A stretch of DNA of 64,000 bases from an uncultured Candidatus Cloacimonadota bacterium. Its GTDB lineage: Bacteria; Cloacimonadota; Cloacimonadia; Cloacimonadales; TCS61. The position numbers and the translations under genes are program-made. The stretch is from the NCBI GenBank assembly GCA_964433675.1, contig CAYSSJ010000004.1, positions 66,454 through 130,453 on the forward strand, in the 5' to 3' direction. Positions within the stretch are counted from its first letter, which is position 1, and each line of letters begins with the position of its first letter. This document shows, one piece after another, positions 7,181-36,058 of the stretch. Below the pieces are notes generated by a model. It had not been told where the DNA came from. It saw nothing but the letters and a program-made list of their open reading frames with translations, and ran no database searches.

Positions 7181-8437
<1,257 letters not shown>

Positions 8438-11549: not shown

Positions 11550-11574
11550 GGATGTTGTTGAAGAGGATTAAATG

Positions 11575-11885
11575 TCTGCTACCTGTAGAAATGGCAGGTG
11601 GAGGAAAGTCCGAACACCAGAGGGCAGGATACTTCCTAACCGGAAGCTCCGGCAACGGAGAGATAGCTCCACAGAAACAAACCGCTCCGAGTTTACTCGG
11701 AGTAAGGGTGGAATGGTGGTGTAAGAGACCACCGGATCTCGGTGTGAATCGAGATGCCAGGAAAGCCTTATCCGGTGCAATGCCAAATAGGAAAGCATGG
11801 GTTTGCCCGACCCGTTATGCTTTCGGGTAGGCAGCTACAGTCGGGCGGTGTTGCCGCTCTCGAAAAGAGAATAGCAATATCCGAC
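11575..11885 (+). ncRNA. rnpB: RNase P RNA, bacterial type A (boundaries approximate, plus or minus 25 nt)
   Basis: Conserved blocks ggaggaaagtccg, acagaaa, agggtggaa-ggtg-gtaagagaccacc and aatgccaaatagg, all typical of bacterial RNase P RNA; ORFs 11546-11830(+) and 11568-11798(-) here are spurious. Confidence 0.8.
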
Positions 11886-11980
11886 GTAGATAAATAGACA
11901 TTGGGTTGCTTGTTAGGCAACTTACAGAATTCGGCTTATTATCTTCTTCAACAACACTTCAAGTTAATATAAAGGTTGTT

Positions 11981-22532: not shown

Positions 22533-22748
22533 CTATTCTTTCGTACAGATCAGTTTGCTTGCGATAGCCAACAAAAAGAAGCTGGATGCTAAATGGAAAT
22601 AATTCACGACACTAGCGGTTAGGATTTTTCCGGGAATCAGAAAATTCAATATTCCCAATACCATCAAGATCACACCAATGAGGATAAGAATCTTGTTGAT
22701 GATCTTCATCTCTCCCCCCTTTACTTTTTTTATGATGCATGGCATCAT
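22533..22748 (-). CDS. Small hypothetical membrane protein (2 TM)
   Basis: Two hydrophobic segments; overlaps stop of upstream peroxiredoxin gene. Confidence 0.3.
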   Translation of the reverse strand: MMPCIIKKVKGGEMKIINKILILIGVILMVLGILNFLIPGKILTASVVNYFHLASSFFLLAIASKLICTKE

Positions 22749-23206
22749 TTATGTTTATCTAGAAAATCCAAAATCTCCTTGATGTCAGGCAATTCTGATA
22801 TTTGATAGATCTTTTTGAATACAATTTTCCCATTTTCATCGATGATAATATTCGCACGCTGGGAAAATCCTTCCTCTTCTCTAAATAGGTCATACAATTT
22901 CGCTACCTTACCGTGAGGCCAGAAATCAGCTAGGATTCTAAGGTTTTTTAGTCCCAGTTTCTTTGCCCAGGCATGTTTGGTAGGCACATGATCTATACTG
23001 AGCCCAACAGGGATAGTATTAAGTGAGAGAAAAGTATCGTATTCTTTTTCCAACGCTTTCATTTGTTTGGCACAAATTTTCGTCCAAGCGAGAGGATGAA
23101 AAGAGAGTAGTATTCTTTTCCCCTTATGCTTAGAGAGCACAAAATCTTCATTATGCTGGTCTTTCAATTTGAAATCCGGTGCTAATTTGTTTAGTTTTGA
23201 TTCCAT
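22745..23206 (-). CDS. Peroxiredoxin (AhpC/TSA-Bcp family)
   Basis: PLAWTKIC matches the PxxxTxxC peroxidatic-cysteine motif; thioredoxin-fold size. Confidence 0.65.
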   Translation of the reverse strand: MESKLNKLAPDFKLKDQHNEDFVLSKHKGKRILLSFHPLAWTKICAKQMKALEKEYDTFLSLNTIPVGLSIDHVPTKHAWAKKLGLKNLRILADFWPHGKVAKLYDLFREEEGFSQRANIIIDENGKIVFKKIYQISELPDIKEILDFLDKHK

Positions 23207-29993: not shown

Positions 29994-30971
29994 CTATCCC
30001 GAAATTGAATTTACTGTCTCAATCAGTTCATGGCGGATATCTTCCACATCATCAAAGATAATTCTGGTGATGCAGGAGATGAGAGGGATGGAGAGATTGA
30101 ATTTTGCCAGTTTTTGCACTGTTTTTGCCATCGAGACCCCTTCGACTACCATTCCGACTTTGTTCAGTGCCTCATCACGTGAATATCCCTGAGCTAAAAG
30201 CACACCGAACTGCCGGTTTCTACTATGTGGAGACATGCAGGTAGTGATGAGATCTCCCAAACCGGCGATTCCATATACCGTAGCTGCTGGTACTCCCAAG
30301 AAGTCCATCACGATCTTATATTCTCGCAATCCATATGTCATGATCAAACCGAAAAAATTGGATTTGAATCCCAATCCATCTGATAAACCCACTGCTATAG
30401 CGATCAGTCCTTTTAGAGATGCTGCCAGCTCCACACCTTTCACATCTCTGCTAAAATCGAATTTCAAGACATCATTCTGGATGATGTTTTGCAGGTGAAA
30501 TAGCAGCGCTACATTTCGTGATGCCAAAATTGCCTTTGCCGGCAATCCTTCTGCTACTTCGCGGGCTATCGTCGGTCCGGACAAGGTAGCGAATCTTACC
30601 TTCGGCATTCTATGTTTCACCAATTCGCCGACTGTACGCAATGACTTATGCTCTACCCCTTTGGATGCGTTGACCATGGTAAAAGAGGTATAATGATTTT
30701 CGATAAATTCATCTATCAGAGAGCCGATGAAACGAGAGGGGATGGCAATTACCACTATGTCATCTTCCTCGATTGGGGAGGAGAATTTTTCTTCGATAGT
30801 AATAGTTTCCGGTATGGAGACATTAGGTAGAAAGTAGAGATTCTCGCGGTTGCTGTTTAGTTTCTCAGCTTCTCTACTGTCGATAGTCCATAGATGAACT
30901 TTGTTCGACCGGCAGAACAGCAAAGCTAGGGAAGTACCCCAATTTCCAGCTCCGATTACTACTATTTTCAT
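29994..30971 (-). CDS. gpsA: NAD(P)H-dependent glycerol-3-phosphate dehydrogenase
   Basis: MKIVVIGAGNWGTSLA Rossmann N-terminus; start at Met 8 of the ORF-track model. Confidence 0.85.
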   Translation of the reverse strand: MKIVVIGAGNWGTSLALLFCRSNKVHLWTIDSREAEKLNSNRENLYFLPNVSIPETITIEEKFSSPIEEDDIVVIAIPSRFIGSLIDEFIENHYTSFTMVNASKGVEHKSLRTVGELVKHRMPKVRFATLSGPTIAREVAEGLPAKAILASRNVALLFHLQNIIQNDVLKFDFSRDVKGVELAASLKGLIAIAVGLSDGLGFKSNFFGLIMTYGLREYKIVMDFLGVPAATVYGIAGLGDLITTCMSPHSRNRQFGVLLAQGYSRDEALNKVGMVVEGVSMAKTVQKLAKFNLSIPLISCITRIIFDDVEDIRHELIETVNSISG

Positions 30972-30998
30972 TCCAAACCTCCAACACCACATAAATCA

Positions 30999-31075
30999 TG
31001 GTGGGTGATACTAGATTCGAACTAGTGACCTCTACGATGTCAACGTAGCACTCTAACCAACTGAGCTAATCACCC
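30999..31075 (-). tRNA. tRNA-Val (anticodon GAC), CCA encoded
   Basis: Minus strand GGGTGATTAGCTCAGTTGGTTAGAGTGCTACGTTGACATCGTAGAGGTCACTAGTTCGAATCTAGTATCACCCACCA has a 7-bp acceptor stem, anticodon loop TTGACAT and a T-arm GTTCGAATC. Confidence 0.9.
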
Positions 31076-31155
31076 ACGTTTGTGAACCAGATATTTTCTC
31101 CGACTCAGATGTCAAGTAAATTCAGCTTAGATAGTATGAAGCAGATATATTAACT

Positions 31156-31185
31156 TTGATAGGTTCAATATAAATGTTGCATAAT
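31156..31185 (+). promoter_or_regulatory. Candidate sigma70 promoter for encapsulin operon (TTGATA-18-CATAAT)
   Basis: Direct sequence; about 55 nt upstream of encFtn ATG, RBS aaaggagaaa. Confidence 0.4.
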
Positions 31186-31241
31186 TAGCAAGAAAGATTA
31201 AAATATTAAATATTAAAAGAATTTAACGAAAGGAGAAAGTT

Positions 31242-31586
31242 ATGGCGAACTATCATGAACCCGCAGAGGAATTGTCGGTAAAAGACAGAGATCTATCCAG
31301 AGCTTTGAATAGTCTGAAAGAAGAGGTAGAGGCAATAGACTGGTATCAGCAACGCGTTGCTACTGCCGGAGATGAAGATCTGAAGAAGATATTAGCGCAT
31401 AATCGAGATGAGGAGATCGAGCATGCCGTGATGACCTTGGAATGGTTGAGACGCAATATGCCGGCTTGGGACGAAGAGATGCGAACTTATCTCTTTACCG
31501 AAAAACCGATCACCGAACTGGAAGACGATGAAGAAGAAGGCGATGCAGGTGGAACCAGCCTTGGCATCGGCTCACTAAAAGAATAA
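31242..31586 (+). CDS. Encapsulated ferritin-like cargo protein (EncFtn) with C-terminal encapsulin targeting peptide
   Basis: ExxH iron-binding motif (EEIEHA) in a short four-helix-like protein; C-terminal GGTSLGIGSLKE matches the family 1 encapsulin cargo-loading peptide consensus (SLGIGSLK). Confidence 0.75.
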   Translation: MANYHEPAEELSVKDRDLSRALNSLKEEVEAIDWYQQRVATAGDEDLKKILAHNRDEEIEHAVMTLEWLRRNMPAWDEEMRTYLFTEKPITELEDDEEEGDAGGTSLGIGSLKE

Positions 31587-31601
31587 AGAAAGGAGATAAT
31601 T

Positions 31602-32399
31602 ATGGATTTTTTAAAGAAACATTTAGCACCCATATCTGAAGAAGCTTGGGAAGAAATAGAAGAACAAGCTAAGATCAGCCTAAAAGCTCATCTTTCTGGC
31701 CGAAAATTTGTGGATATCGATGGACCCAAGGGATGGGATTTTCCCGGTAAGGCTTTGGGTAGGTTAAATTTGGCAAATACCAAAAAAGAAGATGTAAATT
31801 ATGGAGTTCGTTCATTTTTGCCCACGATCGAGGCAAGAGTTCCCTTCACACTGAAAATCTGGGAATTGGATAATGCTACCAGAGGTGCGGAAGATGTAGA
31901 TCTGGAGAATTTGGAAGTTGCTGCCAAAAGGATAGCTACTTTCGAAGATTCTGTTATCTACAACGGACTTAACAAAGCAAATATTGATGGGATATTCAAA
32001 ACTGCTCCCCATAAAATCAAGTTAGCCGCTGATTCGATGCAATGGCTGGAACAGATATCCGAGGGGATAGAAATCTTTTCGGATAATGCTATCGAAGGAC
32101 CTTTTGCCTTGGTTTTGAATCCCAAATCTTGGCGTGCTCTGGATAAATATTCCAAAGGATATCCGCTCAGAAGACAGGTAAAAGATCTGATCGGTGGTCC
32201 TATTATTATGGCAAATTATCTAAAGAAAGACGGTGTTCTTGTTTCGATCAGAGATGATGATCTGAAACTTACAATCGGACAAGACTTTTCTATAGGGTAT
32301 GAACAGCATGATAGCGAGAATGTGAAACTATTCATCACAGAAACTTTTACTTTCCAAATCAACGAACCAAACGCTATCATCAATCTGAAAACGGAATAA
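31602..32399 (+). CDS. Encapsulin nanocompartment shell protein (family 1, HK97 fold)
   Basis: Strong similarity to characterized encapsulins, e.g. GRKFVDIDGPKGWDF, TFTLKIWELDN, GQDFSIGYEQHDSENVKLFITETFTFQ. Confidence 0.85.
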   Translation: MDFLKKHLAPISEEAWEEIEEQAKISLKAHLSGRKFVDIDGPKGWDFPGKALGRLNLANTKKEDVNYGVRSFLPTIEARVPFTLKIWELDNATRGAEDVDLENLEVAAKRIATFEDSVIYNGLNKANIDGIFKTAPHKIKLAADSMQWLEQISEGIEIFSDNAIEGPFALVLNPKSWRALDKYSKGYPLRRQVKDLIGGPIIMANYLKKDGVLVSIRDDDLKLTIGQDFSIGYEQHDSENVKLFITETFTFQINEPNAIINLKTE

Positions 32400-32413
32400 T
32401 AAAATCCACATAG

Positions 32414-32444
32414 AGGGGATGCTTTCGGGCATCCCTTTATTTAT
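32414..32444. terminator. Rho-independent terminator (ggggatgctttcgggcatccc plus T-run)
   Basis: Perfect 8-bp stem followed by tttatttatt after encapsulin stop. Confidence 0.7.
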
Positions 32445-33085
32445 TGCCGATCGAAATCGATATGAGCGAATTTGTGCTCTAAATAGCCGGTGGACAGAGT
32501 TATATCCTCATCGTAAGCATAGGTGCTGATAGTCTCTTGCTCAAGATTTACATGCCAGATAAGTGGTTCGAAATTACGGTGCTTGTGAATATCGTGAATA
32601 CACAAAAAGACTAAGTTTTCACTATCCAACCAAAATCCGTCTTCCACATAGATAGCCGGACCGGCAAAGTAAATCCGAATTCTCTGCTCGTCGGTTGAGT
32701 CTATCAATGCCACTTCTGTATCTACATTGAATCCACCCCAATATTCATCATTTTTTCCTATCTCAAGTTTGTAGCTATATAGATCGAGATAGAGCGGTTT
32801 TTGCGGATTGCGGAGATATTTGTACAACTCAGCTTTTTCCGGATCGAATTGATATTCACCCGTTTGTATCTGTAGGTTTGCTTCGGATTCTAATTCAAAC
32901 TTATCGAGCTCAAGTTTGTGTTCATCATCTGAATGAAATGCCAGCCATTGCGGGCAGTTTTCTGCTATGCCAGCTATGATGGTTTGCTCGATGGATGGTT
33001 CCCTGAGGGTATGTCTGATATAGACAAAAAGCATAATTATGATAAGAAGAGCTATAGCGATGAGCAAACCGGTACGATATTTCAT
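32441..33085 (-). CDS. Hypothetical membrane-anchored protein
   Basis: N-terminal TM helix; downstream of DUF58 gene. Confidence 0.4.
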   Translation of the reverse strand: MKYRTGLLIAIALLIIIMLFVYIRHTLREPSIEQTIIAGIAENCPQWLAFHSDDEHKLELDKFELESEANLQIQTGEYQFDPEKAELYKYLRNPQKPLYLDLYSYKLEIGKNDEYWGGFNVDTEVALIDSTDEQRIRIYFAGPAIYVEDGFWLDSENLVFLCIHDIHKHRNFEPLIWHVNLEQETISTYAYDEDITLSTGYLEHKFAHIDFDRQ

Positions 33086-33087
33086 GT

Positions 33088-33975
33088 TTAATACAACCTG
33101 GAACGCTTGATCAGGTAATGCAGCAGATTTTGTTCGAAAGGAGTTTCTGTACTGATCGGATTGTATTCTATATGCGATTCATGACATTTGGTTTTAAAGT
33201 ATTTGATAGTATCGGCGTAGTTTTTTTGATAATCAGCTTTGATCTGCCAGGGGTTGACGGTGATCTTCTCATCAGTTTCGGAATCGACGAATTCGGTTTC
33301 ACCACGAAATCCAAAATCCACTTCTTGCGGATCTTGAATATGAAATAATATCACTTCATGTTTCTGATGCCTGAAATGCTGTAAACCGAGCAGCAGCTTT
33401 TCCGGGTCATCTATCATATCGGAGATCAGAATGATCAGACTACGTTTCTTGATCTTTTCGGCAAGCTCATGCAAGACATCGGCAGTATTAGTAGTTTCGG
33501 CAGCTTTTAGATGAAAGAGTCTCTTGAGGATAAAATTCAGATAAGATGTCATCGATCGTGCCGGAATAAACTGAGTTGTTTTGTTTGTATAAGTAAGCAG
33601 CCCGACGGCATCTTGTTGGGAAAGCATCAGATAGGCAAGAGCAGATGAGAAAGCTTTGGCATATTCCAGTTTTGTCCATTTTCCGGAACTATATCCCATC
33701 GAATTACTATGATCGAGCAAGATATACGAGCGCAGATTGGTCTCTTCCTCATACCTTCTGATATAGTATCTATTCGTTTTGGCATATACTTTCCAATCTA
33801 TATTCCTGATCGAATCTCCCGGGATGTACTGACGATGGTCGGAAAATTCTACACTAAAACCATGATATGGTGATTTGTGCAAACCGGTGATAAAACCTTC
33901 GACGATCAAGCGTGCCCGCAGGTTGAAGCGATTCATCGTCGCCATGTATTCCGGTGAAAGTAGGTTAGGTTTCAT
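33088..33975 (-). CDS. DUF58 domain protein (vWA-like, MoxR-associated family)
   Basis: HKSPYHGFSVEFSDHRQYIPGDSIRNIDWKVYAKT is the DUF58 signature block. Confidence 0.75.
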   Translation of the reverse strand: MKPNLLSPEYMATMNRFNLRARLIVEGFITGLHKSPYHGFSVEFSDHRQYIPGDSIRNIDWKVYAKTNRYYIRRYEEETNLRSYILLDHSNSMGYSSGKWTKLEYAKAFSSALAYLMLSQQDAVGLLTYTNKTTQFIPARSMTSYLNFILKRLFHLKAAETTNTADVLHELAEKIKKRSLIILISDMIDDPEKLLLGLQHFRHQKHEVILFHIQDPQEVDFGFRGETEFVDSETDEKITVNPWQIKADYQKNYADTIKYFKTKCHESHIEYNPISTETPFEQNLLHYLIKRSRLY

Positions 33976-34151
33976 TTTTTCTTGCGAACTCCTGACATGA
34001 TTGCTGCCGGGAACAGAGCTCCGTATGCTATGACCAGCAGTATGGGAGAGATCGTCTTGTCGCCGGTTCCCAAGATGATATAACCTACCACACTTACGAT
34101 GATTGCCAAGATAAGCAAGGCAACATTCACTTTCGAGAAAACGAATTTCAT
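33972..34151 (-). CDS. Small hypothetical membrane protein, 59 aa (not in ORF track)
   Basis: Manual translation MKFVFSKVNVALLILAIIVSVVGYIILGTGDKTISPILLVIAYGALFPAAIMSGVRKKK; stop overlaps DUF58 start (ATGA), suggesting translational coupling. Confidence 0.3.
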   Translation of the reverse strand: MKFVFSKVNVALLILAIIVSVVGYIILGTGDKTISPILLVIAYGALFPAAIMSGVRKKK

Positions 34152-34153
34152 AT

Positions 34154-36058
34154 TTACTCCTCTTGTTTGATTTTGTTTAGCAACTCTTTTGATTTTTCTA
34201 CCGAACGGTCATGGTTCTCCAACTGAACAGCTAAGCGGAGATAATGGATTGCCTGATCGGTATCTTCCAACTGGTAATAAATCGCACCCAAATGGTATGC
34301 CATTTCACTATTGTCTATCTCATTTTCCATAGGTAATTTCATGGCTTCCAGTGCTTTGGCGTATTCTCCTTTTCGATAGAAGAGCCAAGCTAAACTATCC
34401 CAATACATTATATTCTCAGGATCCATCTCCAGAGCTTGGTTCAGCAGTTTCTCGGCTGTTTCGTATCTCTCGTCAAGTTCATAGTCGGCGATTAGATAAG
34501 CATAAGTGTTGAGAAGATCGGCATTTTCGGGATAATAACTCACAGCACTTTCCAAAAGTGGAAAGATATCCTCAACCTGACCGATTTTATCCGCAGAGAT
34601 GGTAGCCAAAATATACACATTTGCCGCTGCCGGTTCACTTTCTTCTATCTCTTTTTTCAGATAATGATAAGCAAGGGAGTCTGCTCTACTATTGAAGAAA
34701 TAGACTCCGGCTATCTCATAGAATGTCGGTGAGTGCTCTTCTCGATGCTCTAAGAGCTTTTGTGCTTTTTCCACATCTTGAGCTGCAGAGAGATATGTCA
34801 AAGCAGCTGTCTGTAAAAGTTGATTTTCTCTGAGAAATTCGAGAGAAACATTGTCTAAAAAACGGCGTACTTCTTCGTTCATATCCAAAAGATCATAGGT
34901 ATAAGCACAGATAAAATTAGTTAGATCCGAATCGGTACTTTCCAACTTCTGCAAGGTCTGTAATAATTTATCTTCTATTGTCTGGTCATCAGATTGGGCA
35001 AATTGATTGAAAAGTGGCAACAGAGATTGGATCGAATCTGAGAGGAGAAAATATTTCGCAGCATTCTCAATGTCAGCTTCTCTAAAATATGCTTCTCCGA
35101 GATAGCTATAGAAATTCGGCAGTAGGTCTTTGGGCAGATCATCATTTTGCAAGATAGCGTCACCAGCTTCGATAACGACAGCATATCTTTCTTTTCGCAA
35201 AGCGGAGAAAAAGAGAAAGCGGAGTGCGTCGGTATTGTTCAACTGCAAGCACAACTCTCTATTATCCAATATTTTGTCGAATTGATTGTCAAAATAGTAC
35301 TGCCCGAGAAGAAAGACTTTGAATTGATCGCGCATAGAATGCTGAGAGTGGAGCCGTTCTTCCAATAGCTGGATTATCTTGTCCTTTTCGCCCAGTGAGT
35401 CATAAAGGCGCAGCAATCGTTGTAAGATATATTCATCATACCATTTGTTGTACGCTCTTTCGAAATAACTTATAGCAGCTTTAGGGTCATGATCGGCAAG
35501 TAATTCTATACTTCGTATTACCAGTGTTCTTCTTTCCCACTCCAAGTCCAAGGCTTTTTGCAATAGTTCAAATTCGGTGGGCAAATTTTGCTCTTTTTGG
35601 AAGAGAAAAAAGGCGTAGTAATGTTCCATAGTAGGATCATATTCCAAAGCTTCCCGATAGAAAAATTCAGCTCGCTCGATATTTCCGATCCGATTATAGG
35701 CTTGGGCAATAAAGAACAAAATTGCACTATTATAGCTATCATCTTCCCAATACTGTTCACCCAAGCTGATGATCTGGTGGTTTAAATCTTCGTTTGTAAT
35801 AGCCAAATAAGAGAGCAGTTCGATTAGCTTTTCTTTGATAAGAATATTGCGCGGATTGTGTTTTTCTGCCATTCTAAGATACTGAATGGCAGTGGTATAA
35901 TCTTCTATCTGCATAGCAGTTTGAGCCATCGAATAATACATCAGCGACAGGTTTAGTTCTCGCTGATCGAGAGGCTCCCGCTCTTTGCTGCTCTCAGAAA
36001 TAGTGGCACAGCCACCGAGCAAAAGCAAGCTGAGTAGTAAGAGTGCTGTTCGTTTCAT
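34154..36058 (-). CDS. TPR-repeat lipoprotein
   Basis: Lipobox LLLGGC; multiple TPR-like repeats (AxxYxxLG.. patterns). Confidence 0.6.
   Translation of the reverse strand: MKRTALLLLSLLLLGGCATISESSKEREPLDQRELNLSLMYYSMAQTAMQIEDYTTAIQYLRMAEKHNPRNILIKEKLIELLSYLAITNEDLNHQIISLGEQYWEDDSYNSAILFFIAQAYNRIGNIERAEFFYREALEYDPTMEHYYAFFLFQKEQNLPTEFELLQKALDLEWERRTLVIRSIELLADHDPKAAISYFERAYNKWYDEYILQRLLRLYDSLGEKDKIIQLLEERLHSQHSMRDQFKVFLLGQYYFDNQFDKILDNRELCLQLNNTDALRFLFFSALRKERYAVVIEAGDAILQNDDLPKDLLPNFYSYLGEAYFREADIENAAKYFLLSDSIQSLLPLFNQFAQSDDQTIEDKLLQTLQKLESTDSDLTNFICAYTYDLLDMNEEVRRFLDNVSLEFLRENQLLQTAALTYLSAAQDVEKAQKLLEHREEHSPTFYEIAGVYFFNSRADSLAYHYLKKEIEESEPAAANVYILATISADKIGQVEDIFPLLESAVSYYPENADLLNTYAYLIADYELDERYETAEKLLNQALEMDPENIMYWDSLAWLFYRKGEYAKALEAMKLPMENEIDNSEMAYHLGAIYYQLEDTDQAIHYLRLAVQLENHDRSVEKSKELLNKIKQEE

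Follow-up and report, generated by a model that had tools for sequence, protein, structure and literature searches.

An operon very probably encoding a Family 1 encapsulin nanocompartment with EncFtn-type cargo in an uncultured Cloacimonadota bacterium

The layout that defines Family 1 encapsulins is a cargo gene positioned 5′ of the gene for the shell protein (PMC8346489). In the Thermotoga maritima system (maritimacin, 3DKT/7KQ5), the gene upstream of the shell gene encodes a ferritin-like cargo with a C-terminal targeting peptide, and the host is an anaerobe. The encapsulin of Haliangium ochraceum (7ODW/7OE2/5N5F) is paired with an encapsulated ferritin-like protein (EncFtn) by the same two-gene logic. 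The reference for the mechanism of EncFtn is the protein from Rhodospirillum rubrum (Rru_A0973, 5DA5), in which the roles of the ferroxidase-centre, entry-site and outer-site residues were established by He et al. 2016 (PMC5012862). EncFtn has no iron storage of its own, and it is the shell that holds the mineral (PMC5012862, PMC8346489). In a full-text literature search, no paper connected encapsulins to Cloacimonetes. Here we describe a pair of genes, encFtn followed by enc, in 64,000 nucleotides (nt) of contig CAYSSJ010000004.1 (assembly GCA_964433675.1, forward-strand positions 66,454 to 130,453) from an uncultured Candidatus Cloacimonadota bacterium. This whole stretch is referred to as the window, and coordinates are counted from its first nucleotide. 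The pair is very probably a two-gene operon for a Family 1 (classical) encapsulin nanocompartment. The system is of a well-known kind, and the systems closest to it are those of T. maritima and H. ochraceum.

The encFtn-enc pair and its products

An initial sequence-only reading of the window had proposed a complete Family 1 encapsulin operon with EncFtn-type cargo. Curated hidden Markov models (HMMs), matches to solved structures, a structure model, and conserved catalytic and targeting residues agree with this proposal, and none of the tests that were run contradicted the assignment to Family 1 or to EncFtn. The two open reading frames (ORFs) were confirmed on the plus strand at 31242–31586 (114 residues) and 31602–32399 (265 residues), and both start with ATG. 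The cargo gene, which is dedicated and encodes a C-terminal targeting peptide, ends 15 nt upstream of the shell gene, and the order of cargo followed by shell is kept in every relative examined within the clade. Both genes are under strong purifying selection relative to a sister species (L023), with ratios of nonsynonymous to synonymous divergence (dN/dS) of 0.04 for the cargo and 0.05 for the shell. Proteins identical to both are already present in NCBI, JGI, ENA and Logan assemblies, on contigs of up to 298 kb, where the shell is labelled “uncharacterized linocin/CFP29 family protein” and the cargo “hypothetical protein”. The contigs include ones from digesters (JGI 3300033163, 3300037528 and 3300033171).

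In searches with Family 1 encapsulin and EncFtn profiles, both proteins exceed the curated cut-offs. The 265-residue-long shell protein matches the NCBIfam equivalog NF041155, “family 1 encapsulin nanocompartment shell protein”, with 280.7 bits (cut-off 100) over positions 1–261 of 261, and Pfam PF04454 (Linocin_M18) with 278.3 bits (cut-off 24.3) over positions 1–253 of 253; its E value of 1e-83 against a curated model is far beyond chance. The full-length alignment to characterized shells of the HK97 fold that had been claimed for this protein holds end to end for T. maritima and H. ochraceum. Residues 1–263 match T. maritima 3dkt with an E value of 6e-68, at about 43% identity over the full 265 residues. 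The H. ochraceum shell 7odw is the second-best match, with an E value of 8.5e-61 and 39–41% identity.

Structure prediction of the shell protomer by AlphaFold2, based on 29 diverse homologs, gave a confident model with a pLDDT of 88.1 and a pTM of 0.85. Foldseek comparisons of the model with protomers of T = 1 shells from T. maritima, H. ochraceum, Klebsiella pneumoniae and Mycobacterium tuberculosis (7KQ5, 3DKT, 7OE2, 8U50, 9BKX) gave TM-scores of 0.92–0.94 with a root-mean-square deviation of about 2 Å. The scores are 0.92–0.93 for the T. maritima protomer and 0.90–0.92 for that of H. ochraceum. By contrast, the T = 3 and T = 4 shells of Myxococcus xanthus (EncA) and Quasibacillus thermotolerans, which also belong to Family 1 and store iron, reach TM-scores of only 0.72–0.82 at 21–23% identity, and contain extra length that the shell described here lacks. 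As modelled, the shell protein has an HK97-type encapsulin fold and belongs to the subgroup of T. maritima and H. ochraceum. A T = 1 architecture is predicted solely from its closer likeness to T = 1 than to T = 3 or T = 4 shells. The cargo of the M. xanthus system comprises EncB, EncC and EncD, whereas that of Q. thermotolerans is IMEF. EncC matches the cargo described here weakly, with an E value of 2e-5, and the NCBIfam model EncB_fam scored 69 bits, below its cut-off of 90. Because of this score, the lower structural similarity and the lack of the extra shell length, the system is not of the EncA or IMEF type.

The shell protein contains a tryptophan, Trp87, in the sequence context WELDN; of 29 close homologs, 26 retain this residue. 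Flavin stacks on the corresponding tryptophan of the T. maritima shell (PMC8086157; numbered W90 in PMC8610991). The conservation of Trp87 suggests that the Cloacimonadota shell may also bind flavin as the T. maritima shell does. A further and rather doubtful proposal is that the clade of Cloacimonadota shells bearing Trp87 represents a flavin-dependent iron-release system of strict anaerobes. The comparison with T. maritima spans a difference in lifestyle, since the host of maritimacin is a hyperthermophile whereas the Cloacimonadota bacterium is a mesophile, for which flavin binding and assembly are predicted.

The 114-residue-long cargo protein is identified as EncFtn by both profile and structure matches. 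It scores 161.2 bits against NCBIfam TIGR04535, “encapsulin-associated ferritin-like protein” (cut-off 125), and 141.2 bits against Pfam PF22277 (EncFtn-like; cut-off 27) over profile positions 1–85 of 85, and its E value against a curated model is 8e-48, likewise far beyond chance. The E values against EncFtn structures from H. ochraceum, Nitrosomonas europaea and R. rubrum range from 1e-32 to 4e-29. The best of these matches, at 1e-32, is to the H. ochraceum protein and covers residues 4–102; the two cargos differ in the length and sequence of their linker and tail, with 131 residues in the deposited H. ochraceum chain and 114 in the protein described here.

The alignment with R. rubrum EncFtn (E value 4e-29) pairs cargo residues 4–94 with residues 8–98 of the 5DA5 chain, 91 positions without a gap. 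The ligands of the ferroxidase centre, the entry site and the outer site of the reference protein are all retained. The ferroxidase-centre residues E28, E58, H61 and Y35 correspond to E32, E62, H65 and Y39 of R. rubrum; the entry-site residues E27 and E30 to E31 and E34; and the outer-site residues H53, E57 and E60 to H57, E61 and E64. The ExxH motif that had been noticed in the protein is present as E58-I-E-H61. By these alignments, the Cloacimonadota protein is an EncFtn with the di-iron ferroxidase centre and the entry site intact, and its function is predicted from the R. rubrum reference.

The C-terminus of the cargo, GGTSLGIGSLKE (31548–31583, plus strand), had been interpreted as a Family 1 cargo-loading peptide, and this interpretation is borne out. 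An acidic flexible linker, ELEDDEEEGDA (residues 92–102), precedes the tail SLGIGSLKE, in which SLGIGSLK is the exact core of the consensus of Family 1 targeting peptides, SDGSLGIGSLKRS (PMC8346489). The tail also contains the GSLK targeting motif given by He et al. (PMC5012862). The motif recurs in cargos encoded beside homologous shells, which end in SLGIGSLKE (L023), SLNIGSLK (L025) and GLGIGNL (L002); the DyP-type cargos of actinobacterial loci L003–L005 end in GSLAIGSLKG.

Proposed iron storage and expression of the operon

The homologous systems suggest how the compartment may work. About 60 shell protomers would self-assemble into a T = 1 icosahedron with a diameter of about 24 nm. The cargo is predicted from its homologs to form metal-dependent decamers with ferroxidase activity and without iron storage of their own (PMC5012862, PMC8346489). 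These decamers, of D5 symmetry, would dock by their tails in luminal pockets around the five-fold vertices; docking of decamers at five-fold axes has been described (PMC8610991). Ferrous iron would enter through pores of the shell and be oxidised at di-iron ferroxidase centres spanning the dimer interfaces of EncFtn. Since EncFtn has no storage capacity for iron, the resulting Fe3+ mineral would be retained within the shell. Such a compartment would probably allow a strict anaerobe to sequester Fe2+ and to consume O2 and H2O2 under oxidative stress, in addition to serving as an iron reserve.

Each of the two genes is preceded by the Shine-Dalgarno sequence AAGGAG, read from the sequence at 31230–31235 for encFtn and at 31590–31595 for the shell gene (both plus strand), with 6 nt to the start codon in each case. 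The 22-nt initiation regions of the two genes (repeat families D3 and D4) share 86% identity. Transcription had been proposed to start from the promoter TTGATA-18-CATAAT. The two hexamers are present at 31156–31185 (plus strand) and form a sigma-70-like candidate with 10 of 12 matching positions; however, the match does not exceed chance, since 5 promoter-like sites were observed in the 2-kb region and 5.1 were expected from shuffles. The sister species has the same two hexamers, but they lie in a 166-nt spacer that must also hold the divergent promoter of a tRNA-Val gene, so that their conservation does not point to an encapsulin promoter in particular. A Bacteroidota-type −7 motif, TAACTTTG (TAnnTTTG), at 31151–31158 (plus strand) overlaps the TTGATA hexamer, and 218 of 1000 shuffles contain an equally good match. 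Because both the sigma-70-like and the −7 motif matches are at the level of chance, the encapsulin promoter is a candidate only.

The terminator that had been predicted after the shell gene is well supported. An 11-base-pair GC-rich hairpin followed by TTTATTTATT was found by a terminator scan (element 32413–32448, plus strand, with the hairpin and T-run at 32413–32438), between the shell gene and a convergent gene for a 214-residue protein. The hairpin RNA folds with −16.8 kcal/mol (z = −3.4), and 1 of 200 shuffles is as good; the stem and the T-run are kept in the sister species despite diverged flanks. The terminator may serve both convergent genes.

In an Rfam search at the gathering threshold, the 166-nt leader matched neither a riboswitch nor any other RNA element; the only hits were the tRNA and a distant, full-length bacterial RNase P RNA of class A (11560–11953, plus strand; 256.7 bits). 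The best matches to Fur or PerR boxes upstream of the operon were equalled by more than half of the shuffles. In the relative L025, the shell of which is 62% identical, a gene for a Fur-family regulator (7655–8110, plus strand) is located directly 3′ of the shell gene.

Genomic context and alternative explanations

The operon is surrounded by housekeeping genes, as judged from Pfam content within 10 kb on either side. One flank encodes NIF3, AhpC, ABC permeases, LpxK, acetate kinase, NDK and GpsA, and the other a DUF58/VWA protein, a TPR protein, a CDP-alcohol phosphatidyltransferase, dUTPase and XseB. The named homologs of the adjacent GpsA are all from Candidatus Cloacimonadota (Cloacimonetes), at 64–69% identity. 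The AhpC/TSA-family peroxiredoxin gene (22745–23206, minus strand; mapped from locus L029, 1144–1605), about 8 kb upstream of the operon, is another oxidative-stress gene in this anaerobe. Immediately downstream, the opposite strand (33088–36058, minus strand) encodes the DUF58/VWA protein, a 59-residue protein and the 634-residue TPR protein, a set that may resemble the Bat/MoxR-type aerotolerance clusters of Bacteroides.

The HK97 fold is common to encapsulins and phage capsids, and a few close database homologs of the shell have a precomputed match to Phage_capsid (PF05065) beside PF04454. It could therefore be proposed that the two genes belong to a degraded HK97-type prophage, with the 265-residue protein as its major capsid protein and the small upstream gene as an unrelated phage gene. 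The probability of this explanation is vanishingly small. The shell matches only Linocin_M18 in Pfam and the encapsulin equivalog in NCBIfam; PHROG yields no match at E ≤ 0.01 for the shell or cargo or for three small neighbours; and no gene for a terminase, portal, protease, integrase or mobile element was called within 10 kb to either side. The gene upstream of the shell encodes a genuine EncFtn with a targeting peptide. The phage-capsid reading was rejected on the absence of PHROG and Phage_capsid matches and of phage genes nearby. It is also very unlikely that the shell is a general-purpose compartment in which EncFtn is a minor cargo and the main one, perhaps a DyP peroxidase or another ferritin-like protein, is encoded elsewhere. 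Some Family 1 systems do have secondary cargos outside the operon (PMC8346489), and the inspection for such cargos covered only the 64 kb of the window. However, no other ORF of at least 50 residues in the window has a tail resembling a targeting peptide, the dedicated EncFtn/Flp systems of T. maritima and H. ochraceum are the closest relatives with solved structures, and the pair of cargo and shell is conserved across all the clade relatives examined. The preferred explanation, a Family 1 operon with EncFtn cargo, has limits of its own. Particle assembly and T number, loading and ferroxidase activity of the cargo, binding of flavin, and expression are predictions from homology; the promoter is a weak candidate with a match at chance level; and neither a regulator nor a Fur/PerR box was found, as tblastn detected no homolog of Fur in the window (best E value 3.2).

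The other alternative concerns the origin of the operon. A gene for tRNA-Val(GAC) is located beside it at 30999–31075 (minus strand), as the sequence-only reading had noted in suggesting that this is a landing site for horizontally acquired DNA. The tRNA gene stands; the landing-site part of the suggestion is not supported, since neither an integrase, nor an att repeat, nor atypical composition was detected. That the operon is a recent horizontal insert using tRNA-Val as its integration site is consistent with the organization of relatives with about 70% GpsA identity, which have tRNA-Val beside gpsA and other genes, not the encapsulin, beyond the tRNA. In addition, more distant shell relatives, at 62% and 54% identity, occupy other genomic contexts, and Family 1 operon types are spread over phyla in a manner consistent with frequent transfer (PMC8346489). 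Nevertheless, a recent insertion is unlikely. The same site is already occupied by the operon in the sister species, which has synonymous divergence (dS) of about 0.4–0.8 and about 85% nucleotide identity across 9 kb. The flanks of the operon contain no direct repeat of the tRNA sequence: within 30900–33200, no att-like repeat involves 30999–31075, and the repeats present are the two ribosome-binding regions and short chance matches. For integrative elements, the usual target is the 3′ end of a tRNA gene. By contrast, the operon abuts the 5′ end, because the tRNA gene is on the minus strand. The GC content of 0.40–0.41 across the operon equals that of its surroundings (41% in the window), and the codon-usage distances of the operon genes are mid-distribution, ranking 29th and 31st of 64 genes; given the flat GC content and typical codon usage, a compositional island was rejected. 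A neighbour-joining tree places the shell together with those of L023, L025, L026, P0009 and one homolog named Cloacimonetes in 100 of 100 bootstraps, separate from sequences of Bipolaricaulota, Bacteroidota, Zixibacteria, Desulfobacteraceae and Firmicutes. This grouping provisionally favours a long residence in the phylum, in which the operon was inherited and its position reshuffled.

The relatives also indicate how the position of the operon has changed. tRNA-Val(GAC) is immediately upstream of gpsA in L034 and L035, in the same orientation as in the window, and in L038, where it is inverted; the tRNA-gpsA pair is ancestral, because it is kept in these relatives. Beyond the tRNA is FTCD in L034 and a beta-CASP nuclease in L038, and the absence of the encapsulin from this position in L034, L035 and L038 could be due to rearrangement, loss or gain. 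L025 and the relative with 54% shell identity contain the same cargo-shell pair in different contexts; therefore, the position of the operon is unstable in the lineage. The tRNA-gpsA pair is conserved but the genes beyond it differ, which makes tRNA-Val a synteny breakpoint. Four independent metagenome contigs with the operon (L023, L024, L032 and L033) start inside tRNA-Val, and the breakpoint probably also breaks assemblies. The start of gpsA is ambiguous: its longest ORF (29994–30992, minus strand, 332 residues) begins 6 nt away from the tRNA, and some public calls place the start seven codons downstream (325 residues; P0127 vs P0126).

Synonymous divergence from the sister species is uneven across the locus. 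Calculated by the NG86 method, dS is 1.66 for the shell gene (2.2 in its first half) and 1.38 for the convergent 214-residue gene, whereas seven other genes of the locus have values of 0.37–0.81, including 0.55 for the cargo and 0.47 for DUF58. The divergence of the shell and 214-residue genes is thus 2–4 times that of their neighbours. The edges of this block are sharp, with nucleotide identity dropping near 31,660 and returning near 33,140. The 214-residue protein (32441–33085, minus strand) has an N-terminal hydrophobic helix and is membrane-anchored; it has no matches in Pfam, NCBIfam or PHROG. It is 72% identical to its counterpart in the sister species, compared with 99% for the product of the next gene, DUF58. 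L023, the shell of which is 85% identical, could have been a strain with a hypervariable shell; this was rejected, because nucleotide identity of about 85% along the locus marks it as a sister species. The simplest reading is that a recombination tract of about 1.5 kb gave the shell, and not the cargo, a more divergent allele. NG86 estimates are noisy at such divergence and only two genomes were compared, so that the tract is no more than a lead. The targeting peptide SLGIGSLKE is identical in the two species. A more far-reaching and rather doubtful proposal is that shells are exchanged by homologous recombination independently of the cargo, even within a genus, while the invariant peptide keeps the two compatible. 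It is possible that the co-replaced 214-residue protein is functionally tied to the shell.

Meaning for Cloacimonadota

Beyond annotation, the meaning of the locus is modest. Because the source metagenomes still carry the labels “hypothetical protein” and “linocin/CFP29 family protein”, the correct names can be transferred to the cargo and the shell. The shell is possibly an additional mesophilic T = 1 shell for engineering. With this operon, Cloacimonadota, which are abundant syntrophic anaerobes in digesters, join the lineages that have EncFtn encapsulins, and its occurrence there fits the idea that such compartments shield strict anaerobes from the chemistry of Fe2+ and O2.

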